Assembly (NCBI GenBank): GCA_963663385.2
Contig: CAXXXD010000004.1
Coordinates: 704,001 to 768,000, forward strand
Source: Oceanispirochaeta sp.
GTDB lineage: Bacteria > Spirochaetota > Spirochaetia > DSM-2461
Length of the DNA stretch: 64,000 nt
Direction: 5' to 3'
Below the pieces are notes generated by a model, which saw nothing but the letters and a program-made list of their open reading frames with translations, was not told the DNA's origin and did no database searches. The first letter of the stretch is position 1; each line of letters starts with the position of its first letter. Below, piece after piece: positions 8,793-45,556 of this stretch. The position numbers and the translations under genes are program-made.

Positions 8793-9536
8793 TCAGGAAA
8801 TCAGAATCTCCACACCTGCCTGTTTAATTATATCCCTGTACTCATTGGAGATGCCGTCATCTGTAATCAGGTACTCGATATCTTCGATTCCGCAGTACCG
8901 GGAAAGGGCAATCTTGCCGAATTTACTGGAATCTGTCAGAACAAAAGTCTGGGGGCTGCGTGCAATAATTTCACTGTTGATCTCGGCGCGCATCATGTCC
9001 CGGCCGGTAAATCCGGTTTCAGGAGTAAAGCCGTCTATTCCGACAAAGGCTTTGGAAAAATTGAGTGCATTCAGGCAGAGTTTTACCATATTGCCCACCA
9101 TGCATTCGCTTTCCGGCTGATAGATGCCTCCCAGGAGAATCACTTTGCCCAAGGCATCCTTCCCGATCTGCCTGGCAATAAAGGCGTTGGATGTAATGAT
9201 CGTTGTTTTTGGAATCCGGGAAACCTCTTTGGCAAAAAGGGCATTGATTGACCCCGATTCAATATAAATCGTTTCACCTTCGTCCACGTACTCTGCCGCC
9301 AGTCTGGCTATTTTCAGCTTGCTTTCGTAATTGATTCCCATCCGATGGGAAATATCGTCTGTTTCATCCAGAACGGCTCCGCCATGAACCCGGCGGAGGA
9401 AGCCGTTATTCTCCAGCAGGGTAAGATCCTGCCTTACTGTGGCCTGGGACACTCCCAGCTGATCTGCCAGAGCATTGACTGTAACTTTTCGCCCGTCCGA
9501 CATTATACTCAATATCTGTTTGTGCCTCTCGTTCAT
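8793..9536 (-). CDS. yciT: DeoR/GlpR family repressor, YciT-like
   Basis: VSQATVRQDL...LRRVHGGA HTH; SKAFVGIDGFTPETGFTGRDMMRA and LTDSSKFG closely match E. coli YciT as recalled. Confidence 0.85.
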   Translation of the reverse strand: MNERHKQILSIMSDGRKVTVNALADQLGVSQATVRQDLTLLENNGFLRRVHGGAVLDETDDISHRMGINYESKLKIARLAAEYVDEGETIYIESGSINALFAKEVSRIPKTTIITSNAFIARQIGKDALGKVILLGGIYQPESECMVGNMVKLCLNALNFSKAFVGIDGFTPETGFTGRDMMRAEINSEIIARSPQTFVLTDSSKFGKIALSRYCGIEDIEYLITDDGISNEYRDIIKQAGVEILIS

Positions 9537-10050: not shown

Positions 10051-10085
10051 TTTCGAATGAAATCTTTAAAACAGTCATATGAAAA
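10051..10085. promoter_or_regulatory. Paired DeoR-type operator (site A)
   Basis: TTTCGAATGAAA and GTCATATGAAAA, cores 22 bp apart, just downstream of minus-strand TTGACA-17-CATACT. Confidence 0.6.
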
Positions 10086-10210
10086 TAGTATGCTGGTGTT
10101 TTTCCGGTTTGTCAATGAATTCTGTTTGCTGTTTGAACTGTACCAACAGCATGGGATTATATAGAATGGAAATCCATAGAGATAATCCGGAGAGGAAAAA
10201 GGGGCTTTTT

Positions 10211-11332
10211 ATGAATAAAATCGGAATAGCTATGGCAGGATTCGGGGCAATCGGACGGATACATCTATTGGCATACAGGGATATTCCCCATTTCTACCCG
10301 GGACAACTGCCCGGGATTCGTCTGTCAGGAGTGCTTCGTTCAACTAAAGAAGCATCAGACGCTACAGCCCGGGAGGCGGGATTTGAGAAGGGGTATGCTG
10401 ATTATCAGGAAATCCTGGATGATCCCGCTGTGGATGTGATTGATCTTGCCACACCTAATTATCTTCATAAGGAGCAGATTCTGCAGGCTTTGAGAGCCGG
10501 AAAGCATGTTCTTTGCGAAAAACCCCTTGCTCTCAACGGCGGTGAGTCGGTGGAAATACTGAAGGAGCTGGACCGATCGGACTGTCAGGTAGGGATGATA
10601 TACAATTACCGGTTTGTTCCTGCCATAATAAAAGCAAAGGAGCTGATCGGCCAGGGCCGTCTGGGAGAGATTTACACTTTCAGGGGGGAGTATTTTCATA
10701 CGGGCTATCAGAATCCTGCAAGACCCTTCAGCTGGCGGATGGATTTCAGCCGTTCCGGGGGAGGAGCTCTCGCCGATCTCGGAGTTCATGTGATAGATCT
10801 TCTGAATTATCTTCTGGGAGATTTTTCAACGGTCAGGGCGGAATTGGAAACGTATATCACGGAGAGACCTGCAGCAGGTGATTCAGGAAGAATGGATGCC
10901 GTTACAGTGGATGATGCCGCCTGGCTGCAATGTATGCTGAATGACGGAGGGAAGGGAACAATAGAAGTTTCCCGCTTTGCAACGGGAACTCTTGATGAGT
11001 TGAATCTGGCTGTCTACGGAAGCAGGGGCGCATTCCGGTTTAATCTGATGGATCCGGGTTACCTTTACTGGTTTGACGAAGAGAAGAAGGAGATGGGGTG
11101 GAACCGCCTTGAAACCCTGCAGCATTACGATGGAGCCGTTATTCCCAATCCCCGATCTGTTGTAGGATGGACGCGTTTTCATTTGGAGAATCAGTACCGT
11201 TTTCTGAAATCTCTTCGGGATAATACTGTTTTCCATCCCGGAGCCATAGACGGAGCACGGGCTCAATTTGTACTGGATGCTGCTTATAGAAGCGGGCAGA
11301 CAGGGCAAATCGAACCGGTCCGGCAGATCTAG
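10211..11332 (+). CDS. Gfo/Idh/MocA family oxidoreductase
   Basis: GFGAIG Rossmann, TPNYLH, GKHVLCEKP, WRMDFSRSGGGALADLGVHVID; ATG 10211. Confidence 0.93.
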   Translation: MNKIGIAMAGFGAIGRIHLLAYRDIPHFYPGQLPGIRLSGVLRSTKEASDATAREAGFEKGYADYQEILDDPAVDVIDLATPNYLHKEQILQALRAGKHVLCEKPLALNGGESVEILKELDRSDCQVGMIYNYRFVPAIIKAKELIGQGRLGEIYTFRGEYFHTGYQNPARPFSWRMDFSRSGGGALADLGVHVIDLLNYLLGDFSTVRAELETYITERPAAGDSGRMDAVTVDDAAWLQCMLNDGGKGTIEVSRFATGTLDELNLAVYGSRGAFRFNLMDPGYLYWFDEEKKEMGWNRLETLQHYDGAVIPNPRSVVGWTRFHLENQYRFLKSLRDNTVFHPGAIDGARAQFVLDAAYRSGQTGQIEPVRQI

Positions 11333-11702: not shown

Positions 11703-11751
11703 CTTCATATGAAAAAAATATCTTTACATATGAAAACGCGGGTGTTAGAAT
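11703..11751 (+). promoter_or_regulatory. Paired DeoR-type operator (site B) overlapping the sigma-70 promoter of ABC operon 1
   Basis: CATATGAAAA cores at 11706 and 11727 (21 bp apart); TTTACA-17-TAGAAT promoter at 11723-11751. Confidence 0.7.
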
Positions 11752-11805: not shown

Positions 11806-13092
11806 ATGAAGAAAGTATCAATCAGTCTGATCGCACTGTTGCTGATGTCAGCTATGGCACTGTTTGCGGGGGGGCAGAAAGAGCAGGGAGCCGCTGAGGA
11901 AGCTGTTGATGGAAACAATGTGGAAGTTCTGCACTGGTGGACATCCGGTGGTGAGGCGGCTGCGCTGAATGTACTGAAAGAGGATCTTGAAAAGAAGGGT
12001 ATTACCTGGACCGATTCCCCTGTGGCAGGGGGAGGCGGAGATCAGGCTATGACTGTTCTTCGTTCCAGAGCAACAGCCGGGAACCCCCCTGTAGCTGTAC
12101 AGATGCTCGGTTTTGATATTATTGACTGGGCTGAACTTGGATTCCTGGCCAATCTGAACGATGTCGCCCGTGATGAAAACTGGGATTCGGTTGTTCCCGA
12201 AGCACTGAAGTTTTTCTCAAAACAGGACGGTGTATGGGTTGCGGCTCCTGTAAATGTTCACTCAACCAACTGGGTCTGGGCCAATAAAGAGATTATGGAC
12301 GGCCTCGGAATTGCCGAACCCAAAACATGGGACGAATTTATCGCGGCCATGGAAAAAGTCAAGGCTTCCGGTAAAATCGCTCTGGCACACGGCGGACAGG
12401 CATGGCAGGATGCAACCATGTTTGACAGCTGTGTAATTGCGGCAGGCGGACCTGAATTCTACAAGAAAACCATGATCGATCTGGATGATGCAGCTCTTCG
12501 GTCTGCAACAATGGCTGATGCGTTTAACAAAATGGCCCAGCTGAGAAGCTTTGTGGATGACAACTTTTCCGGCAGAGACTGGAACCTGGCTTCTGCCATG
12601 GTTATTGAAGGACAGGCCTGTTTCCAGATGATGGGTGACTGGGCCAAGGGTGAGTTTAAAAACGCCGGTCTGGAACCTGGAAAGGATTTTTACTTTTTCA
12701 GAACCCCCGGAACAGAAGGAACCGTCACCTTCAATTCCGATCAGTTTGTTATGTTTGATGTAGATGATGTCTATAAGGATGCCCAGAAAGAACTGGCCAA
12801 AGCCATTATGACTCCCAGTTTCCAGATTGCCTTCAACCTGGTTAAGGGATCTGTTCCTGCCAGAACCGATATCTCCGATGCCGAGTTTGATGCAGCCGGT
12901 AAAAAAGGTATGAAAGATCTGGCGGAAGCTGCCCAAAACGGTACCCTTTTCGGTTCCATGGGTCATGGACATGCTGTTCCTGCCGGAATCAAACAGGCCA
13001 TGTATGATGTTGTGACTTCTCACTTCAATGGTGTTTATGACGGTCAACAGGCTGCCAATGATCTGGCTGATGCTGTTGCAGCTGCCAAATAA
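11806..13092 (+). CDS. Sugar ABC transporter substrate-binding protein (CUT1, glucose/mannose GtsA-like)
   Basis: [47 protein letters not shown]. Confidence 0.93.
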
Positions 13093-13113
13093 GAAATAAG
13101 TCGAATTACAATC

Positions 13114-13143
13114 AAGCTGCCCGTATAATAATGCGGGCAGCTT
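13114..13143 (+). terminator. Intergenic stem-loop after the SBP gene
   Basis: AAGCTGCCCGTAT-AATA-ATGCGGGCAGCTT. Confidence 0.7.
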
Positions 13144-13174
13144 TAACTGACTGTTTTCCAAAGGATTAAAATCT

Positions 13175-14059
13175 ATGACTCTAAACAGCAAATGGCGTTT
13201 TACCAAGGATGATCTTACAGCCAGGTTCGTACTTCTGCCGACCCTCATTCTGACATTCGTTTTTGTTTACGCCTTTATTATCTTTACCATTTATATTTCA
13301 TTTACCAATTCCAGATTAATGCCCTCCTATGAATGGGTGGGGATACAGAACTATGTAAAAATGTTTAAGCTTGCACACTGGCATACAGCATTGAAGAACT
13401 TTGCCATCTTCAGTGTTCTCTATATATCCATTTCAACTTTACTTGGTCTGTTTCTGGCGATTCTTGTAGACTGGAGCAAGCTGGGAGAAAGAGTCTTCCG
13501 GCCTATCTATCTCTATCCTATGGCAATCTCCTTTATTGTTACCGGTACAGCCTGGAAATGGTTTCTCGACCCCGGTATCGGACTGGAACAGATTATGCAT
13601 GCCTGGGGATTCGCCAATTTTAAATTCAACTGGATAAAGGATTCGAATTTTGCCATTTATACCATAGTCATTGCCGCAGTCTGGCAGGTAACCGGATATG
13701 TTATGACCATGTTTCTGGCGGGGCTTCGTGCAGTCAATCATGCGACTATCGAATCGGCCGTTGTAGACGGGGCAGGGGCATGGAAACTATATACCAGAAT
13801 CATTATCCCCCAGCTGGGACCGTCATTTACATCTGTTTTTGTTATATTGGGACATATGGCGATCAAGTCGTACGACCTGGTTATTGCACTGACAAACGGC
13901 GGCCCGGGACGGGCAACCGAACTGCCTTCCACCTTTATGTACTCCTACACTTTTACCAGGAATCAGATGGGAGTCGGAGCCAGTTCCGCTGTATTTATGC
14001 TGGTATTATTTGCCATCATCATCATCCCCTATATCAAAAGTATTGTGAAGGATCGTTAA
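13175..14059 (+). CDS. Sugar ABC permease (CUT1)
   Basis: Hydrophobic; EAA-like loop ESAVVDGA; TNGGPG. Confidence 0.93.
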   Translation: MTLNSKWRFTKDDLTARFVLLPTLILTFVFVYAFIIFTIYISFTNSRLMPSYEWVGIQNYVKMFKLAHWHTALKNFAIFSVLYISISTLLGLFLAILVDWSKLGERVFRPIYLYPMAISFIVTGTAWKWFLDPGIGLEQIMHAWGFANFKFNWIKDSNFAIYTIVIAAVWQVTGYVMTMFLAGLRAVNHATIESAVVDGAGAWKLYTRIIIPQLGPSFTSVFVILGHMAIKSYDLVIALTNGGPGRATELPSTFMYSYTFTRNQMGVGASSAVFMLVLFAIIIIPYIKSIVKDR

Positions 14060-14062
14060 GGT

Positions 14063-14935
14063 ATGACTATAAAAGATACAATGCGTATGCATAAAGCGGC
14101 GGGGTATGTCATCTACTTTTTAATGATAATCTTTGCCATATTTTTTCTGACGCCCCTGTATGTCATGGTCGTCAATTCATTTAAACCTCTTGAAGAGATC
14201 CGGGGAGGGAACATGCTGGCTCTTCCCCAGGCTTTTCAGCTCATCCCCTGGGGAACGGCCTGGTCCAAGGCTCAGATAGGTGTACAGGCTACCGGTCTCA
14301 GGCCCTATTTTCTGAATTCCATCAAAATGGTAATCCCTGCGGTATTCATGTCTACGCTGATGGGGTCTCTGGGCGGATTTGTTTTGTCCAAGTGGCAGTA
14401 TCCGGGGGATAAGCTCCTCTTCGGTCTGATCCTTTTCGGCTGCTTTATCCCTTTCCAGATTGTGCTTATTCCCACCGCCCGCGTGCTGGGCAGTATGCAC
14501 CTTGCCGGCACAACCAGCGGCCTGGTTCTGGTTCATACGGTCTACGGGCTGGGGTTTACCACCCTGTTTTTCAAGAATACCTACGACAGTTTCCCGGCGG
14601 AACTGGTTCAGTCCGCCCAGGTGGACGGGGCCCATTTCTTCAAGATTTTCAGGGATATTATCCTTCCCAATTCCACTCCGATTATCGTTGTATCCGTTAT
14701 CTGGCAGACAACCAATATCTGGAATGACTTTCTGTTCGGAGTATCCTTCGGGGATGCCACATCCCAGCCCATGACGGTTGCCCTGAACAATCTGGTCAGT
14801 TCTTCCACGGGTGTGAAAGAGTACAATGTCCATTTTGCGGGCGCTCTTATGGCAGCCCTGCCTACTCTTACCATCTATATGGTATCGGGGCGTTACTTTG
14901 TCCGCGGGCTGATGTCCGGATCAGTTAAGGGGTAG
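14063..14935 (+). CDS. Sugar ABC permease (CUT1)
   Basis: ELVQSAQVDGA loop, WNDFLFG. Confidence 0.93.
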   Translation: MTIKDTMRMHKAAGYVIYFLMIIFAIFFLTPLYVMVVNSFKPLEEIRGGNMLALPQAFQLIPWGTAWSKAQIGVQATGLRPYFLNSIKMVIPAVFMSTLMGSLGGFVLSKWQYPGDKLLFGLILFGCFIPFQIVLIPTARVLGSMHLAGTTSGLVLVHTVYGLGFTTLFFKNTYDSFPAELVQSAQVDGAHFFKIFRDIILPNSTPIIVVSVIWQTTNIWNDFLFGVSFGDATSQPMTVALNNLVSSSTGVKEYNVHFAGALMAALPTLTIYMVSGRYFVRGLMSGSVKG

Positions 14936-15041: not shown

Positions 15042-16007
15042 ATGTCAGAAAAATTAATATGCGGTGTGGATCTGGGCGGCACCAAACTGTCGGCGGCTCT
15101 GTTTAAACAGGACGGCTCTCTTGTGGGAAAAGAGACTGTCTACGATCATAGCGATAAAGAGTGGGATGATATCGTCCGGATAATCGCCGGTCTGTTAACC
15201 CGCCTGTTTGAGTCCTGCTCGGTGAAAAAGAGGAACGTTCTGGGAATCGGTGTTGCCCTGGCCGGGCATATCCATTTTAAAAAGGGAATGATTGTCACGG
15301 TCAGCAATTTTGCCCATAACATTTACAATTACCCCTTTGTGGATAAACTGTCTGCCCTGTTTCCCGGAGTCAGGATTATCCTGGATAATGATGCCAATGC
15401 CCAGGCTTACGGAGAGTACAAGTTCGGGGCGGGAAGGGGCTATCAGGACCTGGTTTTTGTAACGGTCAGCACCGGAATAGGCGGCGGGATTGTTCTGAAC
15501 GGAAAGATGCTCCGTGGAAAGGTGGGAACCGCCGGAGAAGTCGGGCATTCCATTATCGATATCGATTCGGATGTCAAGTGTACCTGCGGGAATTACGGCT
15601 GCGCCATGGCACTGGCTTCAGGGCTGTTTTTTCCGGACCTCTACCGGATGCACCTGAAAAAAGGGATGAAAAGCACCATCGGTATAACAGAGGAGTCCGC
15701 AGGTGAAATGGACGGGAAAGCGATAGAAGACGGAATGAATGCCGGCGATCCCATCTGCCAGGCCATTGTGGACAATTCGGCTGATGTGGTTGGTTCGACT
15801 CTTTACAATATCTATAAAATGCTGGATCCCGAACTGGTTATCCTGGGGGGCGGCCTGATGTCCTTCGGAGACTACTATATAAACCGGATAAAAGAACGCT
15901 TTATGTCCCATACCCATGAGATGATGGCCGAGGAGATGGAAATCAAACTGGCCGAAACCGGACGGGATGCTGGGCTTCTGGGAGGCGCTGCTCTGGTTCT
16001 GGAGTGA
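15042..16007 (+). CDS. ROK family sugar kinase (paralog 1)
   Basis: GVDLGGTK, DNDANA, VSTGIGGG, AGEVGH, CTCGNYGC; no HTH; exact start uncertain (15033 or 15042). Confidence 0.92.
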   Translation: MSEKLICGVDLGGTKLSAALFKQDGSLVGKETVYDHSDKEWDDIVRIIAGLLTRLFESCSVKKRNVLGIGVALAGHIHFKKGMIVTVSNFAHNIYNYPFVDKLSALFPGVRIILDNDANAQAYGEYKFGAGRGYQDLVFVTVSTGIGGGIVLNGKMLRGKVGTAGEVGHSIIDIDSDVKCTCGNYGCAMALASGLFFPDLYRMHLKKGMKSTIGITEESAGEMDGKAIEDGMNAGDPICQAIVDNSADVVGSTLYNIYKMLDPELVILGGGLMSFGDYYINRIKERFMSHTHEMMAEEMEIKLAETGRDAGLLGGAALVLE

Positions 16008-16044
16008 TCCCTTTTCAAATAAATCATTACAGATTTACATTCTG

Positions 16045-16077
16045 ACCGCTGCTTCTGTGAAAGCGGCGGTTTTTTTT
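16045..16077 (+). terminator. Rho-independent terminator
   Basis: ACCGCTGCTT-CTGTGA-AAGCGGCGGT followed by a T run. Confidence 0.8.
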
Positions 16078-17102
16078 CAGTTTAAGTCCCTGATACTTTC
16101 CCGTTCAATCAGCTTGCCTCCGAAAACCACCTTGGCAGGAGGGGAATCGGCATCTTCAAGAATCCGGTCGGTAAGAAGCTGGACAGCCATTCTTCCCATA
16201 CGGTGTTTGCTTACCTCGATGGTTGTCATTCCCGGGGTGCTCATGGATGTTATGGGAAGATTGTCAAAACCGCAGAGGGATATATCGCCGGGGACATTGT
16301 AACCGGTCTCGGTAAGGGCTTTTAGGCAGCCGCAGGCAATAATATCATTGGCACAGAAAAAAGCCGTAGGGAGAATATCATTCTTGCTGAGTTTTTCCAT
16401 CATATCCGTATAGGCCCCGTTAAACGTTGAATCTACGGAAAAGGAAAGATCCTTCTGGTAGGGGATTTCCAGGCGATTGAGGCTCTCCCTGAAAGCCGCC
16501 TCCCTTATCCTGAAATTGGGAGTGGGGTGGATACTGCTTATCATGCCTATCTCTCTGTGTCCCTTTCGGGCAAAATTATTAATAATCTGCCACACCGAAT
16601 CTTCGTTATTCATGTCGATAAAATCAAACCGCAGGTATTTATAGAAGCTGTCCAGAAATACAATAGGTTTTTCGATAACCGAGAAAGCCTCCACATCCTG
16701 GTAACTCAATTCCGTTCCCAGGATAATTACACCTGAATCATCGCTCTTCTGAACATAATCAACAATTTCCTCTATGGGCGTTGTTTTGTAAGTAACCAGT
16801 TTCAGACTGAAGTTTTCATTTTTGGCCTCTTTGCTCATTCCCCGGATATAATCCGCAATAAAGACATCATGATCCCTGTTTAGAATATGACCGTGTCTGG
16901 CAATCTGAAGAAAGCAGATCGAACCGGTTTCATCGTTTGCATTCTGTCTGGTGGAAGGACCTTTGTACTCAAATTCTCTGATGATGGATTGAATACGATC
17001 TCTTGTTTCCTGTCCAACTCCCGGCTTGTTGTTTATAACCAATGAGACTGTAGCGGGAGAAACGCCGGCTTCCTCTGCAATATCCTTAATTCTTACACCC
17101 AT
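16077..17102 (-). CDS. LacI family regulator
   Basis: IKDIAEEAGVSPATVSLVIN, PTAFFCANDIIA, DISLCGFDN. Confidence 0.95.
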   Translation of the reverse strand: MGVRIKDIAEEAGVSPATVSLVINNKPGVGQETRDRIQSIIREFEYKGPSTRQNANDETGSICFLQIARHGHILNRDHDVFIADYIRGMSKEAKNENFSLKLVTYKTTPIEEIVDYVQKSDDSGVIILGTELSYQDVEAFSVIEKPIVFLDSFYKYLRFDFIDMNNEDSVWQIINNFARKGHREIGMISSIHPTPNFRIREAAFRESLNRLEIPYQKDLSFSVDSTFNGAYTDMMEKLSKNDILPTAFFCANDIIACGCLKALTETGYNVPGDISLCGFDNLPITSMSTPGMTTIEVSKHRMGRMAVQLLTDRILEDADSPPAKVVFGGKLIERESIRDLN

Positions 17103-17142
17103 AAGGTTACTTTATATGTGTTTTGAGAATATGGCAAGAAAA

Positions 17143-17296
17143 ACTAAAATTTAATTAAAAACAACTAAAATAATAGTTGTTTGCTATTCTGCATGTAGCG
17201 AAAATGGTGATCCATGTTGGCTTTAATACAGTAAAAATGGTTTATCAACTAAAAATTACTAAAATAAATTGACAGATATTTAATTGATGTTACAAT
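17143..17296. promoter_or_regulatory. Operator repeats and promoter of the LacI-controlled cassette
   Basis: ACTAAAA at 17143, 17164, 17248, 17258; inverted repeat ACAACTA-N6-TAGTTGT at 17161-17180; TTGACA-16-TACAAT at 17269-17296. Confidence 0.55.
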
Positions 17297-17329
17297 TGGT
17301 TTATATCCACAAGTTAAAGGAGTTTTGAT

Positions 17330-18355
17330 ATGAGTTGGAAAAAGGGTATTCTTCTGCTTCTGGCAGCCCTGATGTCATTTTCTACAGTTTTTGCCGGCGG
17401 TCAGTCTGAAGCCGCAGGTCCCAAGCCTGAATCCGAATGGAAAATCGCACTTGTTCCCAAAGACAGTACAAATGCATGGTTTGTAAGAATGGAAGTCGGT
17501 GTCCGGGAGTTTGCCAAGGACAGCGGATTGAACGCATTTCAGAAAGGACCCGCAAAAACCGATGCGGCCATGCAGGTTCAGGTTATTCAGGACCTTATTG
17601 CTCAAGGTGTTGATGCCCTTTGCATTGTTCCTGTCGACCCTGCCGCTCTGGAACCTGTTCTGGCAGAAGCCCTGGATAAAGGAATCGTTGTAGTCACCCA
17701 CGAAGCATCCTTTCAGGAAAATACAATGTATGATATCGAAGCATTTAACAATGCTGATTACGGTGCTTTTATTATGGATAACCTGGCAAAAGCTATGGGA
17801 GAAGAGGGTGTTTATACAACTATGGTTGGACATGTAACCAACGCTTCCCATAACGAATGGGCTGACGGCGGTGTTGCCCATCAGGCCAAGGCGTACCCCG
17901 GCCTTACCCTTCTGGCGGAAGAACCCAGAGTCGAATCTGAGGATAACATGGAAAGGGCCTATGAAAAAGCCAAGGAACTATTCAAAAAATACCCCAATCT
18001 GAAAGGTATTATGGGAACGTCCTCCAAAGACGCACCCGGTGTTTCCAGAGCCATTGAAGAACTTGGTCTGAAAGATAAAGTATTTGTAGCGGGTACCGGT
18101 CTTGTTTCCGAATGCGGACCTTTCCTGGAAAGCGGAATCCTGCAGTATATTACTCTCTGGGATCCCAAGGATGCCGGTTATGCCATGTGTTCACTGGCTG
18201 CCAAAATTCTGAGAGGCGAAGAGATCGGAAACGGTCTGGATCTGGGGCTCAAAGGTTATGACAACATGCAGTTTGCACCCGGCTCGGATAAAGTGCTGAT
18301 CGGCTCCGGATGGATTGTTATGGATAAGAACAATATGCTTGACTATAACTTCTAA
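17330..18355 (+). CDS. Sugar ABC substrate-binding protein (LsrB/rhamnose-like CUT2)
   Basis: IALVPK...WFVRMEVG, DAAMQVQVIQDLIAQGVDA, LWDPKDAG. Confidence 0.9.
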   Translation: MSWKKGILLLLAALMSFSTVFAGGQSEAAGPKPESEWKIALVPKDSTNAWFVRMEVGVREFAKDSGLNAFQKGPAKTDAAMQVQVIQDLIAQGVDALCIVPVDPAALEPVLAEALDKGIVVVTHEASFQENTMYDIEAFNNADYGAFIMDNLAKAMGEEGVYTTMVGHVTNASHNEWADGGVAHQAKAYPGLTLLAEEPRVESEDNMERAYEKAKELFKKYPNLKGIMGTSSKDAPGVSRAIEELGLKDKVFVAGTGLVSECGPFLESGILQYITLWDPKDAGYAMCSLAAKILRGEEIGNGLDLGLKGYDNMQFAPGSDKVLIGSGWIVMDKNNMLDYNF

Positions 18356-18370
18356 TTACCCGGTTTGAGG

Positions 18371-18402
18371 AAGGGCTACCTCTGAATGGGGTAGCCCTTT
18401 TT
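18371..18402 (+). terminator. Stem-loop or terminator after the SBP gene
   Basis: AAGGGCTACC...GGTAGCCCTT followed by TTT. Confidence 0.7.
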
Positions 18403-18424
18403 ATAGGAAAAGGAGTTAGTCCCT

Positions 18425-19933
18425 ATGTCTGAATATATTTTACAAGTTGATAATATAAAGAAGTCCTTCGGTGGCGTTCAAGCGCTCAAAGGTGTTTCTC
18501 TGTCTATTAAAAAGGGCGAGATTCACTCTCTCGCCGGAGAAAACGGGTGTGGAAAATCTACACTGATAAAAGTTATATCAGGTTTCTATGAAGCCGATGA
18601 AGGTTCCCTTACTCTGGATGGGGAGACGTATGACAAAATCTCCCCCATGGAAGCCATTCATAAAGGGATTCAGGTTATCTACCAGGATTTCTCCGTCTTC
18701 CCGAATCTGACGGTAATGGAAAATCTGGCTTTTAATATGGAACTGATGAACCGTCGTAAATTTGTTAATCAAAGACGGATGAGAAAAATTGCTGAAACGG
18801 CTCTGTCTCGAATCGATTTCAAGGTTGATCTTGATGAACGGGTAGAGAATCTTCCCGTTGCGGATAAACAACTGATTGCTATCAGCCGCGCCCTTCTCTA
18901 TGATGCCAGGCTGATTATAATGGATGAGCCGACTACTGCTCTGACCAAAAAAGAAGTGAAAGCCCTGTTTGAAGTTATAAAAAGCCTTCAGGCCCAGGGG
19001 ATCGCCATTCTGTTTGTCTCTCATAAACTGGATGAAGTATTTGAAATCTCGGAAGGATACACCATTCTCCGGAATGGTGAAAATATAATCAGCGGTGAAA
19101 CAGCCGAGCTTACGGATAGTAAGTTTGCCTATTATATGACAGGCCGTGAGTTTAAGGAGGCTTCTTTTACACCTCCGTCAATCGGTAAAACACCCATTGT
19201 CCAGACTGAAAATCTCAGCCTGAACGGAGCCTATAAGGACGTCTGCTTTGATTTGAAGCCGGGAGAGATCCTGGGGATAACAGGACTTCTGGGATCCGGA
19301 CGGACCGAACTGGTGCAAACCCTGTTCGGTTTGAGTACGCCGGATTCGGGTACCATAAAAATGGAAGGGAAGGCCGTTCAGTTTAACAATGTGAAAGATG
19401 CGGTTGCCAAAGGCATTGGTTATGTTCCGGAAGACCGCCTGACAGAGGGGCTTTTTCTTCCCCAGTCCATCAGCCTTAATACAATCGTTGCCAAAATGGA
19501 CAAACTTTCCGGTAGTTCCGGGTTTCTTGATCAGGAACGGATCGATGGAGAAGTCAAGGGCTGGATAAAGGATCTGGCAATTGCTGCCAGTGATTCGGAA
19601 CAGCCTGTTCAGACTCTGTCCGGAGGAAACCAGCAGAAGGTTGTTCTGGCCCGCTGGCTGGCTAACGATTTGAAAGTTCTTATATTAAACGGTCCGACAG
19701 TCGGTGTCGACATCGGGTCGAAATACGATATCCACTCTCTGCTTCGAGAGCTGGCCGGTAAAGGAATGGGGATTATTGTTATTTCCGATGACCTTCCTGA
19801 AATCATGGCCACATGCAACCGCATCCTTGTTATGAGGGACGGCAGCTTTGTTGAAGAGCTGGATCCTTCCTCAACAACGGAGGAGCATCTGAGCAATGTT
19901 ATTACGGGAGATCTGGAGGGAGCATCCATATGA
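18425..19933 (+). CDS. Sugar ABC ATP-binding protein (two NBDs)
   Basis: GENGCGKST, MDEPT, SHKLDE, LSGGNQQKV. Confidence 0.95.
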   Translation: MSEYILQVDNIKKSFGGVQALKGVSLSIKKGEIHSLAGENGCGKSTLIKVISGFYEADEGSLTLDGETYDKISPMEAIHKGIQVIYQDFSVFPNLTVMENLAFNMELMNRRKFVNQRRMRKIAETALSRIDFKVDLDERVENLPVADKQLIAISRALLYDARLIIMDEPTTALTKKEVKALFEVIKSLQAQGIAILFVSHKLDEVFEISEGYTILRNGENIISGETAELTDSKFAYYMTGREFKEASFTPPSIGKTPIVQTENLSLNGAYKDVCFDLKPGEILGITGLLGSGRTELVQTLFGLSTPDSGTIKMEGKAVQFNNVKDAVAKGIGYVPEDRLTEGLFLPQSISLNTIVAKMDKLSGSSGFLDQERIDGEVKGWIKDLAIAASDSEQPVQTLSGGNQQKVVLARWLANDLKVLILNGPTVGVDIGSKYDIHSLLRELAGKGMGIIVISDDLPEIMATCNRILVMRDGSFVEELDPSSTTEEHLSNVITGDLEGASI

Positions 19934-20958
19934 AATTGAAACGACTTTCCAAAAGTACAGAACCCTATGTACTGGGCGCCATTATACTGCTGAGCCTGCT
20001 CATTCAGTTCAGAAGCGGCCAGTTCTTTACAGGAAATAATCTGGTGGATCTGAGCCGTTCTCTTATTGTTCCGGCACTGTTTGCCATAGGCGCCCAGATT
20101 GTTATTGTTTCAGGAGGAATTGATGTTTCCTTTCCCGCAATCGCCTCCCTGTCCATGTATATCACCACCAGAATCCTGCTGAGTGTGGATTATGCCGGAC
20201 CGATTATCCTCCCTTATCTGATGGGAGCGGTTTTCGGTATCGTTATGGGGCTGTTGAATGGTGTCCTGATCGGATTTTTCCGATTCCCCACACTCGTTGT
20301 TACATTGGGTACTTCCAGTCTGTATATAGGTATAATGCAGGGTGTTCTGGCTGCCCATGAGCTGCCGGTTCCTCCCGCCATGTTTGCCCATGGCAAAGCA
20401 AAGCTGTTTTCCGCCTACAATGCGGGGCTGGGGCTCAGTTCCGATATGCCTGTGACTATTTTTATTCTGATTTTCTTTCTCCTGGTTACCTTCCTTCTGC
20501 TCCGCTTTACCATGCTGGGAAGGGGTATCTATGCTCTGGGAGGGGATGAAGTTTCAGCGCAGAGGGCCGGTTTCAATATTCTGGGGATTAAGCTGTTTAT
20601 CTATTCCTATGTCGGTTTGATAGCAGGTATTGCCGGTATCGCCCGGGCTTGTATGATGCGGAACTGCCATCCTACCAACCTCCTCGGGATTGAGATGATC
20701 GTTATTGCTGCGGTTGTACTGGGGGGAACCAGGGTAACCGGTGGTTTGGGTTCCTTAACCGGGACCATGCTCGGTATGGCTTTGATGACTATCATGTCCA
20801 ACAGTCTCATTCTCCTCGGCATTTCAACATACTGGCAGAAAGTATTCACCGGAGCTATTATTCTGATCGGAACGGGAGTATCCGCCTCGCAGGTTTCCGG
20901 GAAGAGAAGAAAGAAAAAATCGGAAGGGGTTCCCGAAAAGAAGGAGGCTCTCTCATGA
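19930..20958 (+). CDS. Sugar ABC permease (CUT2)
   Basis: SGGIDVS, GRGIYALGG, IAAVVLGG. Confidence 0.93.
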   Translation: MKLKRLSKSTEPYVLGAIILLSLLIQFRSGQFFTGNNLVDLSRSLIVPALFAIGAQIVIVSGGIDVSFPAIASLSMYITTRILLSVDYAGPIILPYLMGAVFGIVMGLLNGVLIGFFRFPTLVVTLGTSSLYIGIMQGVLAAHELPVPPAMFAHGKAKLFSAYNAGLGLSSDMPVTIFILIFFLLVTFLLLRFTMLGRGIYALGGDEVSAQRAGFNILGIKLFIYSYVGLIAGIAGIARACMMRNCHPTNLLGIEMIVIAAVVLGGTRVTGGLGSLTGTMLGMALMTIMSNSLILLGISTYWQKVFTGAIILIGTGVSASQVSGKRRKKKSEGVPEKKEALS

Positions 20959-21971
20959 ACCTGAAAAACAGGATAACCACCAATTCCAACAATTTCCGTC
21001 TCTTTGTAATGCTTGTTGCAGTCTTTACGCTGATGAGCCTGATGAGGCCGGAGATTTTTCTCCGTTCCTGGAATCTGGTTTCCATGCTGAAACAGTTTCC
21101 CGAATACGGCCTTATGGCCGTCGGAATCAGTATTACCATGATTACCGGAGGAATAGACCTTGCGGTTGTCGGAACAGCAAACCTGTCGGCCATAATCACA
21201 GCCCGTTTTCTGATTGCCATGGTTCCCAAGGGAGCCCCCACCGGTTTCGTTATTATGATGATACTCCTGTCCATCGGTATCGCCGTGCTGATAGGAGCTG
21301 TCGCCGGTATTTTCAACGGGATTCTTATCTCCCGATTCAGGATCCCTCCCATTCTGGCAACACTTGGAACGCAGCAGCTTTTTACCGGGCTGGCCATTGT
21401 TGCAACCAGAGGAAGACCTATCAGCGGCCTGCCGATAATGTTCTCCCGGGTCGGAAACAAGACCCTTCTGGGATTCCTTCCCGTTCCTTTTATCATCTAT
21501 GCCGTAGCTGCTGTTCTGGTGGGGATTATGCTCTCCCGGACCCGCTTCGGTAAACAGATCTATCTGATTGGTACCAACCCGACGGCCTCACGGTATGCAG
21601 GGCTGAACAATACAATGATTCTGATTAAAACCTATATGATTTCCGGAATCCTTTCGGCGGTCGCCGGTCTGATTATGATGGCCCGGGTCAATTCGGCCAA
21701 GGCTGATTACGGTGCATCCTATACCCTGCAGTGCGTTCTGATTGCCGTGCTGGGCGGGGTTCATCCGGAAGGGGGATTCGGAAAAATCACCGGTGTTACC
21801 ATGGCGATTCTGATCCTCCAGATTCTTTCTTCCGGTTTGAACATGTTCGAGAATGTGAGCAACTTCTATCGGGATGTAATCTGGGGCGGTGTTCTGATTC
21901 TGGTTCTGATACTGAACTATGCCATTTCCCGCCGGAATACAAGAAAGGCACTGCGGGCTTCCCGCAGCTGA
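20955..21971 (+). CDS. Sugar ABC permease (CUT2)
   Basis: TGGIDLA, FGKQIYLIGTN, IAVLGG. Confidence 0.93.
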   Translation: MNLKNRITTNSNNFRLFVMLVAVFTLMSLMRPEIFLRSWNLVSMLKQFPEYGLMAVGISITMITGGIDLAVVGTANLSAIITARFLIAMVPKGAPTGFVIMMILLSIGIAVLIGAVAGIFNGILISRFRIPPILATLGTQQLFTGLAIVATRGRPISGLPIMFSRVGNKTLLGFLPVPFIIYAVAAVLVGIMLSRTRFGKQIYLIGTNPTASRYAGLNNTMILIKTYMISGILSAVAGLIMMARVNSAKADYGASYTLQCVLIAVLGGVHPEGGFGKITGVTMAILILQILSSGLNMFENVSNFYRDVIWGGVLILVLILNYAISRRNTRKALRASRS

Positions 21972-21982
21972 AAGGAGAGTTT

Positions 21983-22297
21983 ATGCAGCGCGTCGGATTT
22001 AAAATGAAGCTTCATCCCGGAAACGCGGAGGAGTATAAAAAACGTCATGATGAGATTTGGCCCGAGTTGAAGGAAGAGCTGCACGAGGCCGGCCTCAGAG
22101 AATTCAGTATCTTCCTGGACGAGGATAATCTGACTCTGTTTGCCTTTCATCTGCTTACAGCCGACAGGGACAATCCCGATCAGCCAGGCGGGGAAGTGCA
22201 GAGACGATGGTGGAAGTATATGGAGCCGCTTATGGAGTGCAATCCTGATTCTTCCCCTAAAATATGGCCTTTAAAAGAGGTCTTTTATCTTAAGTAA
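21983..22297 (+). CDS. rhaM: L-rhamnose mutarotase
   Basis: MQRVGFKMKL...EEYKKRHDEIWPEL...FSIFL...RRWWKYM...LKEVFYL; AGGAG RBS. Confidence 0.9.
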   Translation: MQRVGFKMKLHPGNAEEYKKRHDEIWPELKEELHEAGLREFSIFLDEDNLTLFAFHLLTADRDNPDQPGGEVQRRWWKYMEPLMECNPDSSPKIWPLKEVFYLK

Positions 22298-22319
22298 CAG
22301 CATGTGAAGGAGAAGCGTT

Positions 22320-23294
22320 ATGATTAAATATTCTGTAATTCTGGGCAATCTGGGCAATACCTGCGACCGTTTCCTTTCTTCGGGATATAAAGATGTGGAA
22401 ACGAAGGAAAGCCTTATACGGCAGGCTTCCGAGATAGACGGCGTCAAGGGAATTGAACTGGTGGGGACCTGGGATGTTACCATGGATAATGCCCTGGAAG
22501 TGAAACAGATGCTGGACCATTACGGACTGGAGTGCGTCTCTATTATCCCCGATCATTTCAGTCAGAAGAAGTGGGGGCGGGGAACCCTTTCCGCCAAGGA
22601 TGCCTCAACCCGGCAGATGGCACTGGATTATACGGCGGAGTGTGTGGAGATCGCCCGGAAACTGAACTGCGGGATTCTGAATATATGGCCCGGACAGGAC
22701 GGTTACGATTATCATCTGCAGAGCGATCTGGTTCAGGAACGCCGCTGGCTGATGGAAAATCTGAGGAAACTGGCTTCCGATGCCCCGGATATCAGATTCT
22801 CTCTGGAATATAAACCCAAGGAACCCCGGAATTTTTCCTTTATGGCCCGGGCTTCAGATACACTGCTTCTGGCCAAGGAGATAGGACTGGATAATGTGGG
22901 TGTAACTATCGATACGGGGCATTCATTTGTTGCCGGAGAAAATGTGTCGGAAGCAGCAGTCATACTTCAGGAGTATGGGCAGAAACTCTTTCATATGCAT
23001 TTCAATGATAATTACAACAGTTGGGATGACGATATGATTGTGGGAAGCGTACACTTCCCCCTGTATGTGGAACTCCTTTACTGGCTGGAGGAAACCGGGT
23101 ATAACGGCTGGTACTCAATGGATCAGTACCCATACAGGGAGGATGGCAAAGCTGCTGTCGAAGCCAGTGTAAAGTACCTGCAGATGATTGAGCGGCTGCT
23201 GACTCCTCAGGCCAGGAACGAAATAAAGGACCTTTTGAAAGAGGGCAATGCCGTACGGTCTCAAACCTGGCTGCGGGAGACTTTCTTTAAATAG
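22320..23294 (+). CDS. Xylose isomerase-like TIM-barrel sugar isomerase/epimerase
   Basis: WPGQDG, LEYKPKEPR, IDTGHS, HMHFNDNYNSWDDDMIVG, DQYPYRED. Confidence 0.88.
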   Translation: MIKYSVILGNLGNTCDRFLSSGYKDVETKESLIRQASEIDGVKGIELVGTWDVTMDNALEVKQMLDHYGLECVSIIPDHFSQKKWGRGTLSAKDASTRQMALDYTAECVEIARKLNCGILNIWPGQDGYDYHLQSDLVQERRWLMENLRKLASDAPDIRFSLEYKPKEPRNFSFMARASDTLLLAKEIGLDNVGVTIDTGHSFVAGENVSEAAVILQEYGQKLFHMHFNDNYNSWDDDMIVGSVHFPLYVELLYWLEETGYNGWYSMDQYPYREDGKAAVEASVKYLQMIERLLTPQARNEIKDLLKEGNAVRSQTWLRETFFK

Positions 23295-23610: not shown

Positions 23611-23725
23611 AGAAAGTGAACAGCTTGCGCTTAGTGAAATAGGGTTTGATTCCAGAGCTGAGTCGGGATTCAAAATCTGCGAGGCCCTGCCTGGATAAAA
23701 TATGTATCTATCAAAAGGAGAGAGT

Positions 23726-24682
23726 ATGAAAAAGAAACTCTGCGTAATTATTAGTGTTTGTCTGCTGATGAGCTCAATGGTATTTGCCAATGGACAGCAG
23801 GATGGAGTTAAAGAGGGAACTCCCAGGGTTGCCTTCATTCCCGGTGATATGGCAAACGAGTCTCAGGCATTTGCAGCAAAGATGTTCGAAAAGCATGCCG
23901 CGGAGTATGGATTTGAGGTCATCATTCTCGATGGAAAGGGTGATGCTCAGGTTCAGGCACAGGTTGTGAACAATGCTATTGCCCAGAAACTGGAGGCAAT
24001 CTATATAAATCCGAATGACATCAATGCCATCATTCCCAGTCTGATGCAGGCAAAACAGGCCGGTTTGATTGTCGGCATGTTTTCTTCCGACGTTCCTGAA
24101 GCTCAGGAAAGTGTCAGGGATTTCTTTGTCGGTGTAAATGACAATATGGCCGGAGAGGCCGCCGGTGAAGCATTTCTTTCCAATTTTCCGGGGGGGGCAA
24201 ATATTGTGGAAATCGGTGGACAGTCCGGCCATGATGCCCAGATAAAAAGGCATGACGGTTTTAACAGCGCCATCAGCGGTACAAATATCAGGGTTATTGA
24301 CTATAAAGCGACCCAGCAGTGGGCAACTGCGGAAGCAATGGCCATTATGGAAGATATGATTGTTAAAAACGGTGACCGGATTGATGGCGTTTTCTGTCAC
24401 TGGGATAACGGCGCTACAGGTATTCTGGGGGCCCTGAAAGCTGCCGGAATGGAAGGTAAGTACATTGTCGCTGTTGATGGAAACAGAGCGGGGTTTGATC
24501 AGGTCCGAAGCGGCGAACAGAGTGTCACAATTATGCAGAACTTTGAAACTTTTGCCATAAAATCTCTGGAGATGACACGGACTATCCTGGATGGCGGCAA
24601 GATTGATACACCCGTAAACTTTGTTCCTCTCGATATAGTCAGCCTTGAGAATATAGATCAGTTTACACCTCCCGAATGGTAA
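23726..24682 (+). CDS. Sugar ABC substrate-binding protein (RbsB-like)
   Basis: Signal peptide ...VFANG; DAQVQAQ; GHDAQIKRHDGF; FCHWDNG; AVDGN. Confidence 0.92.
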   Translation: MKKKLCVIISVCLLMSSMVFANGQQDGVKEGTPRVAFIPGDMANESQAFAAKMFEKHAAEYGFEVIILDGKGDAQVQAQVVNNAIAQKLEAIYINPNDINAIIPSLMQAKQAGLIVGMFSSDVPEAQESVRDFFVGVNDNMAGEAAGEAFLSNFPGGANIVEIGGQSGHDAQIKRHDGFNSAISGTNIRVIDYKATQQWATAEAMAIMEDMIVKNGDRIDGVFCHWDNGATGILGALKAAGMEGKYIVAVDGNRAGFDQVRSGEQSVTIMQNFETFAIKSLEMTRTILDGGKIDTPVNFVPLDIVSLENIDQFTPPEW

Positions 24683-24707
24683 TAATTTGTCATGTAAAAA
24701 AGTAGAA

Positions 24708-24741
24708 ATGACTCGTTTCGGGCTGGACCGGAACGGGTCAT
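24708..24741 (+). terminator. Stem-loop after the SBP gene
   Basis: ATGACTCGTTTCGG...CCGGAACGGGTCAT. Confidence 0.6.
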
Positions 24742-24774
24742 CCTGTCGGAACAATTGTTATGAGGTTAGGGAGA

Positions 24775-26280
24775 ATGAAAGAAAAGGAACCGGAAGTCAT
24801 TCTATCGGTTAAGGATGTAAGTAAGGCATTTCCGGGAGTTAAAGCTCTGGATCAGGTTTCCATTGATGTCCAGAGAGGATCTGTCCATGGAATTGTAGGA
24901 GAAAACGGCGCCGGTAAGTCGACTCTGATGAAAATACTGTCCGGAGTATACAGGAAAGACTCCGGAACCATTATTTTTGATGGGGAAAATATCAAAACCA
25001 CAACCCCTCTGCAGTCAATGCAGAGGGGGCTGAGTATTATTTACCAGGAGTTGAACCTTGTTGACACCATGACCGTTGGTGAGAACGTATTCCTGGGCCG
25101 GTTCAAGGAACTGAGGGGGATGCGGAATACCCATGCCAGGGCAAAAGAACTTTTGAACAGTATCGCCTGTTCTATTGATACACATACAATGATTTCGGAA
25201 TTGAGTGTTTCCGAAAAACAGATGGTGGAGATAACCAAGGCACTGTCGTTTGATTCAAAACTGATAATAATGGATGAACCCAGCAGCAGTTTGACAAGCG
25301 AAGAAATGAATGAGCTGGAAGTGATTATTCATCAGCTGAAAGAGAAAGGAATCTCCATTATTTATATCAGTCACAAACTGGATGAAATCTTTGATTTCTG
25401 TGACCGTGTTACTGTTATGCGCGACGGGAAGGTTATCGATACAAAACCGATTGGAGAAATTGACCGCAGCGAGATGATAGCCAAAATGGTCGGCCGTACC
25501 ATTGAGAACGAATTCCCCGAACGGCCCCGCTGTGTCGGCGGTACACTGATGAAAGTTCAGTCCATCAATACTTCCAGGCTGAGTAATGTTTCATTTGAAC
25601 TGAAGAAAGGGGAGATCCTCGGATTAGTCGGACTGGTAGGGGCCGGCCGGACAGAAATTGTCCGGGCGATTTTCGGAGCCGACAAGGTAAAGGGTCATAA
25701 GATATCCATCAACGGAAATCCGGTTAAAATCAGAAAACCCTCTGATGCCAAAAAGGCCGGGGTCTGTCTTGTTCCCGAAGACCGGAAACTCCAGGGGCTT
25801 GTTCTGCCATTTTCTGTTGAATCCAATATCACTCTTGCCAGTCTGGATAGAATCACCAGGTTCGGATTTTTGAATAAATCGAAAGAGAAAGAGATTGCAG
25901 AGAAACATATAAAAAGACTGGGAGTTAAAACGCCATCGGCAAAAACCCGGGTTGAAAGCCTTTCGGGGGGGAATCAGCAGAAATGCATTGTCGGCCGGTG
26001 GATGGAACTCGACCCGAGCATCCTTATTCTGGATGAACCTACCAGGGGAATTGATGTAGGGGCCAAGTTTGAAATCTATCTTCTTATGAAACAGATTGTA
26101 GAGAACGGCGGTTCCGTAATTCTTATTTCCTCGGAACTTCCGGAAGTTCTTAATATGAGTAATCGTGTTTTGACCATTTGTGACGGGCGGATTACCGGAG
26201 AGTTTAATCCTGAAGAAGCCTCTGCAGATGCCATTATGGCGAAGTCTCTGGAATTTAAAGATAAAGGAGCTGCACAATGA
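24775..26280 (+). CDS. Sugar ABC ATP-binding protein (RbsA-like)
   Basis: GENGAGKST, MDEPSS, ISHKLDE, LSGGNQQK, LDEPTRGIDVGAK. Confidence 0.95.
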   Translation: MKEKEPEVILSVKDVSKAFPGVKALDQVSIDVQRGSVHGIVGENGAGKSTLMKILSGVYRKDSGTIIFDGENIKTTTPLQSMQRGLSIIYQELNLVDTMTVGENVFLGRFKELRGMRNTHARAKELLNSIACSIDTHTMISELSVSEKQMVEITKALSFDSKLIIMDEPSSSLTSEEMNELEVIIHQLKEKGISIIYISHKLDEIFDFCDRVTVMRDGKVIDTKPIGEIDRSEMIAKMVGRTIENEFPERPRCVGGTLMKVQSINTSRLSNVSFELKKGEILGLVGLVGAGRTEIVRAIFGADKVKGHKISINGNPVKIRKPSDAKKAGVCLVPEDRKLQGLVLPFSVESNITLASLDRITRFGFLNKSKEKEIAEKHIKRLGVKTPSAKTRVESLSGGNQQKCIVGRWMELDPSILILDEPTRGIDVGAKFEIYLLMKQIVENGGSVILISSELPEVLNMSNRVLTICDGRITGEFNPEEASADAIMAKSLEFKDKGAAQ

Positions 26281-27284
26281 TGGACCAGTTGACCCTGAAA
26301 AATGGATTATTGAATAGGAAGCCCGATATGGCCGGCTGCTTTTCATCACTCTTTAAGGAGTACCTTGTTCTAGCCGCTATCGGTCTGCTGGTTCTGGTAA
26401 CAGCTATTGCTGAACCGAAATTCCTGTCTGCGGCAAACCTGACTAATATTATGCGGCAGTTCGGACCATTGATTATGGTGGCTCTGGGCATGACATTTGT
26501 TATTATCGGCGGATTTATAGATCTTTCGGTGGCCGGCATTATGTCGCTGGTAGCTGTTGTCACTCTATCGCTTATTGAACCTCTCGGGCAGATTCCCGCC
26601 TTGATCCTCGGACTGAGCCTGGGAGCCTTCTGCGGTTTATTCAACAGTTTTCTTGTCCTGGTCAGCGGTGCTGTAACACAGGCGGAGGCGCTTTTCATCA
26701 CTTTCGGTATGAGTGTCGTCTATGGCGGAGCCGCTTTGATCTATACAGGCGGCGTGACCGATCATATGAGCTATATAGAAAGAGATTATTCGGTTTTTAC
26801 AAGTATAGGGACAGGAACACTGGGTATTTTCTCGGTATCGTTTCTGATTTTTCTCTTTGCCCTTTTTGTACTTTTTATTTTTCAGAGCAAAACCTATATG
26901 GGAAGAACCATCAGCCTTATCGGAGGGAATAAAACCGCCGCCGGATTATCGGGAATCTCAATAGGCAAGGGTATTATGACGATCTATACCGTATCAGGTT
27001 TGATGACAGCTCTCGGAGCCATTGTCCTTTTTTCCAGGGTCACAACGGCATCTCCCGTTATCGGAAAAAACTTTGATACAAATGCCATCCTGGCTGTTGT
27101 CGTAGGCGGGACCTCTCTGTCGGGAGGGAAAGGCAGTGTTATCCGGACCGTTCTGGGAACAATGCTGGTTATTCTTCTTGCCAACTGCATGAATCTTCTG
27201 GGTGTTTCTGTCTATATGCAGAATGTTATGAAAGGGGCCATCCTTATCCTGGCCATCTGGCTGGACAGCCGAAAACAGAAATAG
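26277..27284 (+). CDS. Sugar ABC permease (RbsC-like)
   Basis: GMTFVIIGGFIDLSV, AVVVGGTSLSGGKG. Confidence 0.93.
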   Translation: MMDQLTLKNGLLNRKPDMAGCFSSLFKEYLVLAAIGLLVLVTAIAEPKFLSAANLTNIMRQFGPLIMVALGMTFVIIGGFIDLSVAGIMSLVAVVTLSLIEPLGQIPALILGLSLGAFCGLFNSFLVLVSGAVTQAEALFITFGMSVVYGGAALIYTGGVTDHMSYIERDYSVFTSIGTGTLGIFSVSFLIFLFALFVLFIFQSKTYMGRTISLIGGNKTAAGLSGISIGKGIMTIYTVSGLMTALGAIVLFSRVTTASPVIGKNFDTNAILAVVVGGTSLSGGKGSVIRTVLGTMLVILLANCMNLLGVSVYMQNVMKGAILILAIWLDSRKQK

Positions 27285-27296
27285 GAGATTCCCTGA

Positions 27297-45211: not shown

Positions 45212-45556
45212 TCAGATTTTAACCCGGTTCCCTTCGGAGAGAAGAAGAACATCCGGAATATGATCTTCCGCGTCCTTAATATCAATCGTACAGTAGGAGC
45301 AGATAATGACTTTGTCCCCTTTGTGGGCCAGTCTGGCGGCGGCTCCGTTCAGGCAGACTTCTCCTTCTTTTCCGTCTATTATATAGGTGGAGAATCTGGC
45401 TCCGTTATTGATGTTCAAAATATCAACTTTCTCGTGACGGAACATATTAACCGCTCTATACAGAGCCGGATCAACGGATACGGAACCCTCATAATTCAGG
45501 TCCGCATCTGTTACGGTGGCCCTATGCAGTTTGGATTTCAGCATTTCTATTTTCAT
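45212..45556 (-). CDS. panD: Aspartate 1-decarboxylase
   Basis: KSKLHRATVTDADLNYEGS, NGARFSTY, LNGAAAR. Confidence 0.97.
   Translation of the reverse strand: MKIEMLKSKLHRATVTDADLNYEGSVSVDPALYRAVNMFRHEKVDILNINNGARFSTYIIDGKEGEVCLNGAAARLAHKGDKVIICSYCTIDIKDAEDHIPDVLLLSEGNRVKI

Follow-up and report, generated by a model that had tools for sequence, protein, structure and literature searches.

The window, by which we mean the whole 64,000-nucleotide stretch of DNA analysed here, contains two paralogous ROK kinases, each the last gene of an ABC importer unit, and a glycyl radical enzyme from which the kinases lie 14.5 kb (ROK1) and 1.2 kb (ROK2) away. The features of the region, with the number of related loci where a family recurs, are as follows.

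8793-9536, - strand: DeoR/YciT-type regulator, of a family present in 95 of 161 loci of Met-type ROK kinases
10079-11332, + strand: Gfo/Idh/MocA oxidoreductase, accessory; closest to levoglucosan dehydrogenase, below the cut-off, in a loose cluster of 25 loci
11723-11751, + strand: sigma-70-like promoter match upstream of the binding protein, 10 of 12 positions with extended TG; a consensus match only
11806-14935, + strand: glucose-type CUT1 ABC importer before ROK1, made up of a binding protein (11806-13092) and permeases (13175-14059 and 14063-14935), the unit lacking an ATPase gene
15042-16007, + strand: ROK1, a Met-type ROK kinase of 321 aa; the start is an ATG that matches homologues
15579-15608, + strand: zinc motif CTCGNYGCAM of ROK1, Met codon ATG at 15606-15608
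16044-16071, + strand: hairpin resembling an intrinsic terminator, at the end of the importer-ROK1 unit
23702-28256, + strand: CUT2 ABC importer before ROK2, comprising binding protein, ATPase and two permeases
28261-29226, + strand: ROK2, a paralogous Met-type ROK kinase 63% identical to ROK1; motif CSCGNFGCAM, Met codon 28822-28824
29460-30329, - strand: RmlD-like NAD(P)-dependent reductase/epimerase, of a family in 11 loci, where the gene usually runs divergently to that of the PflD-like enzyme
30479-32809, + strand: glycyl radical enzyme of a sister clade to PflD, sharing 42% identity with E. coli PflD and 34% with YbiW
32824-33723, + strand: glycyl radical activating enzyme (TIGR02494, 335.8 bits, cut-off 174.35)

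The CUT1-type importer of the ROK1 unit also precedes YbiW and a Met-type ROK in loci L003 and L004, and the family of the CUT2 binding protein occurs in 11 loci, including the window. Between the two kinase units (16077-23294) lie genes for a LacI regulator, a rhamnose-type ABC importer, and mutarotase-like and xylose-isomerase-like proteins; this cassette is also present in one congener (G008) and was absent from the other congener stretches viewed. Further downstream (45522-49065), a look at the sequence suggests a pantothenate/coenzyme A cluster with a type III kinase, CoaB/C halves, PanC and PanB.

The zinc-motif region encoded by the ROK1 open reading frame (15042-16007, + strand) reads CTCGNYGCAMALASG. 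A preliminary description of this DNA had pointed to a Met at 15606-15608 where ROK kinases have Glu, with the catalytic NDAN and GExGH motifs intact, and both readings were borne out. The column of this residue, Met189, is Glu in the E. faecalis, S. griseus and T. thermophilus glucokinases by PDB alignment and corresponds to D187 in an alignment with P. shigelloides NagK, while DLGGT (15069), NDAN (15387) and GEVGH (15534) are all read in the ORF. Kept as well are D10, T14, N116, D117, T144, E166, H169 and C180/C182/C187; M189 stands in place of the 1-OH-binding acid, and H36, H76, S88 and Q121 are specific to the subfamily described below. The substitution had been flagged in the first kinase only, where it stands, but ROK2 has GCAM too. 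Of the 16 ROK-like ORFs found in the genome, no others carry this motif; those that could be read have Glu and in one case Asp.

ROK1 scored 209.7 bits against the Pfam ROK family PF00480 (gathering cut-off 22.9), and its AlphaFold model (pLDDT 94) has the two-domain actin-like fold and the HC3 zinc site, with ROK glucokinases as its best structural matches (Z 37.0, rmsd 2.5 Å, 317 residues aligned). It also carries the marks of the catalytic ROK branch, namely DxGGT, the catalytic Asp of ND, the phosphate-binding Thr and the lack of an N-terminal helix-turn-helix, with roles as given in PMC10031466. Neither window kinase reached the TIGR00744 glucokinase cut-off of 260.35 bits (201.5 for ROK1 and 181.1 for ROK2), and both have Met where glucokinases, NagK and NanK have the 1-OH acid of CGxxGCx(E/D). 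The ROK repressors NagC and Mlc are proteins of about 400 aa with an N-terminal helix-turn-helix; ROK1 has no such domain, and the profile matches begin at positions 83-92. An Atlas search returned generic glucokinase clusters only. Judged by these profiles and motifs, ROK1 is a member of the ROK family, yet not a canonical glucokinase.

The role of the replaced acid is taken from a study of NagK (PMC10031466). There, D187 "engages the 1'-OH", in agreement with the earlier statement that the acid of this column contacts O1 of the sugar. According to the same text, D187N lowered kcat from 202 to 110 per s and raised KM from 98 to 430 uM, so that kcat/KM fell approximately 8-fold (2.1 to 0.26) with activity retained, and changes at D6, D105, T10, T132, N104 and E154 were far more damaging. 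The counterparts of those six residues in ROK1 (D10, D117, T14, T144, N116 and E166, respectively) are invariant or nearly so. The acid is also included in the sugar-binding set of ROKs, with the consensus CGxxGCx(E/D), in PMC5458393 and PMC2742894. With the other catalytic residues kept, the enzyme has lost a single contact, that to the anomeric hydroxyl. The activity of D187N indicates that such a kinase can work without the contact, and its cost of just 8-fold to NagK means that glucose may remain a substrate of the Met-type kinases. In addition, because Met is accompanied by changes in the pocket (H76, S88, Q121 and H36), an M-to-E change alone may not restore a preference for glucose.

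Conservation of the Met was assessed in an alignment of 121 rows, consisting of the two window kinases and 119 of the best 120 of 2484 database matches (one 221-aa fragment was dropped). The aligned matches are 44-94% identical to ROK1, and the column is Met in 120 of the 121 rows and Ile in one. H169, C180, C182 and C187 are invariant throughout, and H36, H76, S88, N89 and Q121 are conserved along with Met; ROKs outside the group mostly have Pro at 76, Pro at 88 and Ala at 121. The suggestion that these enzymes form a kinase subfamily was therefore upheld, as the Met is near-invariant across that range of identity and comes with companion pocket residues, and on this sequence evidence it is a subfamily trait, not a one-off. 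The same conservation rules out a sequencing error, chance or a pseudogene as the source of the ROK1 Met.

Among the best 150 representatives at 50% identity (164 domains), the column contains Glu in 131, Met in 20, Gln in five, Asn in three and Trp in one, with a gap in four. With the column masked, all Met proteins fell in one superclade (FastTree support 0.99; SH-aLRT 85 in a quick IQ-TREE run) with three parts: the core clade, a sister clade, and a mixed clade whose members have Glu, Gln, Asn or Met. A single Met-only clade (23 of 44 rows) was rejected, with an AU p value of 9e-5 from a quick tree under LG+G4 and a constraint tested after an earlier tree, which fits repeated gains or reversions. 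One lineage of the mixed clade, 32% identical to ROK1, is of the Met type and lies beside YbiW, and Glu-type relatives branch between it and the ROK1 group. Two Met-type kinases of the sister clade (P0140 and P0166) are fused at the N-terminus to a complete glycyl radical activating enzyme.

Comparison with characterized ROKs places the difference in the sugar pocket. ROK glucokinases (2QM1, S. griseus GlkA 3VGK and T. thermophilus 3VOV; TIGR00744) have the fold, DxGGT, NDAN, GExGH and HC3 in common with ROK1 at about 30% identity, whereas ROK1 has Met for Glu, His76, Ser88 and Gln121 against mostly Pro, Pro and Ala, and a tie to YbiW loci. The sugar-binding set of NagK (7P7I) and human ManNAc kinase (2YHY) equals that of ROK1 except in one column: NagK D187 and human ManNAc kinase E588 are Met in ROK1, and the substrate proposed for ROK1 has no anomeric hydroxyl. 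S88 of ROK1 matches NagK S78 in the alignment, and, going by motif register, H76 would seem to correspond to human R477.

A link between GCxM ROKs and radical enzymes of the PflD/YbiW kind, raised in the preliminary description, was confirmed by the gene neighbourhoods, with YbiW as the usual partner. We examined 160 loci, the best 80 of 249 from genomes and the best 80 of 330 from metagenomes; one scan pattern required Met, so their residue tally (159 Met, one Ile) is not independent and their neighbour counts alone were used. A YbiW- or PflD-like glycyl radical enzyme was found in 139 of these best-matching loci, 133 having the YbiW type (127 within 300 bp), 13 a PflD-like enzyme and seven both. 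Where at least 3 kb was available on both flanks the proportion was 76 of 77, and all but one of the 21 loci without such an enzyme have less than 3 kb on a flank. The commonest gene order is activase, YbiW, kinase and DeoR. The 80 genome loci come from Bacteroidota (51), Spirochaetota (26), Bacillota (one), and Planctomycetota (one), with one unnamed. The neighbouring YbiW proteins share 52-65% identity with E. coli YbiW, whose motifs GCIE, YRC, ESNGHS, KIRS and TSSIS are kept in 97 aligned copies. Two loci speak against a reading of the kinase as part of the pathway: L147 retains the kinase but has lost activase and YbiW, and in L010 the long flanks hold no radical enzyme. In two loci of genus g3 (L166 and L167), YbiW adjoins DeoR but neither an activase nor a kinase; these are possibly decaying loci.

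The same association was observed in genome samples that were not chosen by neighbours. There, kinases were identified from their profile scores, and the residue was taken from those loci whose sequence was retrieved; as in the locus counts, relatives among these genomes are not independent. Every Met-type kinase sampled in this way was accompanied by YbiW. Among 29 genomes of the host's own order, 11 have the kinase and all 11 have YbiW, 15 have neither, and three have YbiW alone; of the latter (three of 14 YbiW genomes), two also have no adjacent activase and one ends at a contig edge. One Bacteroidales family of 121 genomes has 14 with the kinase, 13 of them with a YbiW match and one with an activase and a YbiW gene carrying a frameshift alongside, and three of its 16 YbiW genomes have activase and YbiW with no ROK adjoining. 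Nine of 251 Spirochaetota genomes passed the kinase score. Seven of the nine have a YbiW of at least 53% identity, with Met in all six of those read, and the other two, in genomes without a YbiW match, have equal-scoring ROKs that read GCWE. The 32%-identical mixed-clade kinase stands directly before YbiW in three of these seven genomes, with GCLM read in two of the three. In a class of Bacillota (339 scored genomes), four relatives of the mixed lineage were found, each reading GCxM and having a YbiW-type gene less than 5 kb away; one such Bacillota locus, L216, comprises an activase followed by kinase, YbiW and a fructose-6-phosphate aldolase (FSA) over its cut-off. The link between kinase and YbiW thus holds in three phyla and two kinase lineages, and in the tree each lineage lies beside its own YbiW branch, with E. 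coli YbiW between the branches. The partner of the Met-type kinases is mainly YbiW, the 1,5-anhydroglucitol-6-phosphate lyase, not the PflD-like enzyme of the window.

The host genome has a YbiW orthologue as well as the PflD-related enzyme of the window. The window enzyme has PflD as its best PDB match and groups with PflD, with an NF007437 score of 740.7 against a cut-off of 1109. In the active-site strands, members of its clade read LGWSD and GIQLIQ, against YGLHD and GVQGIG in PflD, and these changes suggest that its substrate may be another epimer. The host YbiW orthologue and its activase are on a second contig, C2 (C2:445581-448871), with no kinase beside them; this YbiW is 53% identical to that of E. 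coli and conserves the Cys-x-Glu and the substrate motifs. Its place on a different contig counts against the proposal made below, as do the distances of 14.5 and 1.2 kb between the window kinases and an enzyme that is no more than a sister of PflD. Four congeners have a single Met-type kinase and the two radical enzymes together in one region, an arrangement suggesting that one kinase serves both enzymes. Several further radical enzyme clades related to YbiW and PflD, with distinct Cys-loop motifs (L198-L208 and L165), occur in sugar loci of family f16 and near 730 kb of the host's own C2.

YbiW and PflD cleave 1,5-anhydroglucitol-6-phosphate and 1,5-anhydromannitol-6-phosphate, respectively, to 1-deoxyfructose-6-phosphate (PMC13450708), and both known routes start with phosphorylation by the PTS (PMC12441222). 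No match to PTS EIIC or EIID permeases of the Glc/Fru or Man families (PF02378 and PF03613) was found in the 98%-complete host genome. E. coli anhydroglycolysis (YbiW/YbiY, PflD/PflC, FsaA/FsaB and GldA; as described in reviews) has in common with the present systems a YbiW orthologue with its activase and active-site motifs, a PflD-related enzyme and, in L216, FSA. It differs in that an ABC or other carrier and an ATP kinase are found here, not the PTS, in that the PflD relative belongs to a sister clade, and in that no FsaA or GldA match was found in the host genome. FrwC, PtsA, FsaA/B and GldA had no match in the 160 Met-type loci, and blastp found no homologues of FsaA or GldA in the host genome, only two long transaldolase-type PF00923 proteins.

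Several other families recur in the loci without FSA, namely RmlD-like reductases, Rpe-like epimerases, GMC and Gfo oxidoreductases and a shikimate-dehydrogenase-like protein. The RmlD-like family of the window (29460-30329) is also seen in L003, L007, L094, L108, L110 and L116, and a second RmlD-like family in L025, L027, L072, L091, L128 and L132. Genes of all these types are candidates for a route upstream or downstream of 1-deoxyfructose-6-phosphate.

On the strength of these comparisons we consider it likely that ROK1 and ROK2 are ATP-dependent 6-kinases adapted to 1,5-anhydrohexitols, above all 1,5-anhydroglucitol, that replace the PTS in anhydroglycolysis. The Met-type enzyme would probably be the starting kinase of the pathway in bacteria without a phosphorylating transporter. 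In the proposed mechanism an ABC importer would bring in the anhydro-polyol unphosphorylated, and the kinase would carry out ordinary ROK chemistry on O6 with ATP, using D117 as base, D10 at the metal site, the zinc-held H169, and E166 and N116 on O3 and O4. Met189 would fill the space facing the C1 methylene and pack there, where a carboxylate would find no hydroxyl partner. The 6-phosphate would then pass to YbiW, encoded on C2, and perhaps to the PflD-like enzyme, with the ring opened to 1-deoxyfructose-6-phosphate. We infer the substrate, the selectivity against glucose and the service of one kinase to both radical enzymes. Human hexokinases and ADP-dependent glucokinase also make 1,5-anhydroglucitol-6-phosphate, as a weak side activity of 1/20 to 1/100,000 of that on glucose (10^4-10^5-fold worse for the hexokinases and ~20-fold for ADP-glucokinase; PMC6347702), whereas in a Met-type kinase the reaction would be the selected function. 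The poor performance of the hexokinases gives a dedicated enzyme a reason to exist.

An improbable alternative is that the Met-type enzymes are broad-specificity hexokinases acting on anhydro-polyols and glucose alike, the Met being a tolerated lineage marker and no adaptation. The mild effect of D187N in NagK (just 8-fold; PMC10031466) would permit this, as would the glucose-binding type of importer before ROK1 and the existence of YbiW without the kinase in six YbiW genomes. However, a tolerated marker would not account well for a Met that is near-invariant over 44-94% identity, that recurs beside YbiW in a separate lineage with Glu-type relatives branching between, and that is Glu in equal-scoring ROKs of genomes without a YbiW match. 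Somewhat less probable still is another C1-deoxy substrate (1,5-anhydro-D-fructose, for example, or an anhydro-sugar in a 3-keto or epimeric form) that would be phosphorylated before neighbouring oxidoreductases reduce or epimerise it. Such compounds likewise have no 1-OH, genes of fitting types recur (Gfo/Idh/MocA in 25 loci, RmlD-like in 11 plus nine, Rpe-like in 11 and GMC oxidoreductase in nine), and the window radical enzyme differs from PflD, but E166 and H169 are kept and most Bacteroidota loci contain just activase, YbiW, kinase and in many cases DeoR, without any oxidoreductase. That the protein is a catalytically dead ROK sensing sugar or partnering the radical activase, as the activase fusions P0140 and P0166 might hint, is very unlikely given that its 321 residues include no helix-turn-helix, that the residues for ATP, metal and base show little or no variation, that the module already has a DeoR regulator, and that a kinase is required where the genome has no PTS permeases.

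Other ROK-like proteins are found near radical enzymes. A protein of 610-631 aa follows a PflD-like enzyme and its activase in L178 (6515-8347, P0285) and in L009, L015, L026 and L197. It has no Pfam family over the cut-off, yet it has ROK-like motifs and can be aligned, though weakly, to the Met-type kinases (hhalign 81%, E 1e-5), its Gln then standing where they have Met; it was not found in the host genome or in four congeners. Possibly, this protein is a second anhydro-sugar kinase. Zinc-less ROKs lie beside PflD-related genes in L201 (9626-10612), L007 (11732-13138) and L223 (9146-9715, a fragment), and three other relatives do not. Those of L201 and L007 read GExW, with no acid in the 1-OH column; as an extra convergent case they are weak, just two of five genome matches being near radical-enzyme genes.

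A wider reading, which we offer tentatively and hold to be somewhat short of even, is that the Met-type kinases are the first enzymes selected for 1,5-anhydroglucitol against glucose, that Glu-to-Met arose more than once in ROKs recruited to YbiW, and that the Pfam-less Gln protein feeds a PflD sister enzyme that acts on a different anhydro-sugar phosphate; in Spirochaetota, Bacteroidota and Bacillota these would together make up a branch of anhydroglycolysis that does without the PTS and varies in its aldolase. We found no account of a ROK 1,5-anhydroglucitol kinase in the literature searched, which did not extend to the pathway-defining study of Ma et al. 2024 and its supplement, where these genes may be mentioned.

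The Met-type kinases offer a clean natural test of the share of the anomeric-hydroxyl contact in ROK specificity. Glucose interferes with present 1,5-anhydroglucitol assays, and if glucose proves to be rejected the enzyme would suit selective measurement of this polyol. The toxic phosphate of GSD Ib and of G6PC3 deficiency is formed from 1,5-anhydroglucitol (PMC12441222, PMC6347702). The motif CxCGxxGCxM provides a one-residue signature with which such kinases may be found among proteins annotated as glucokinase. For the bacteria themselves, the Met-type ROK would be a variant entry into the known anhydroglycolysis pathway, and it likely gives a name to the missing first step of that pathway in anaerobes without a sugar PTS.
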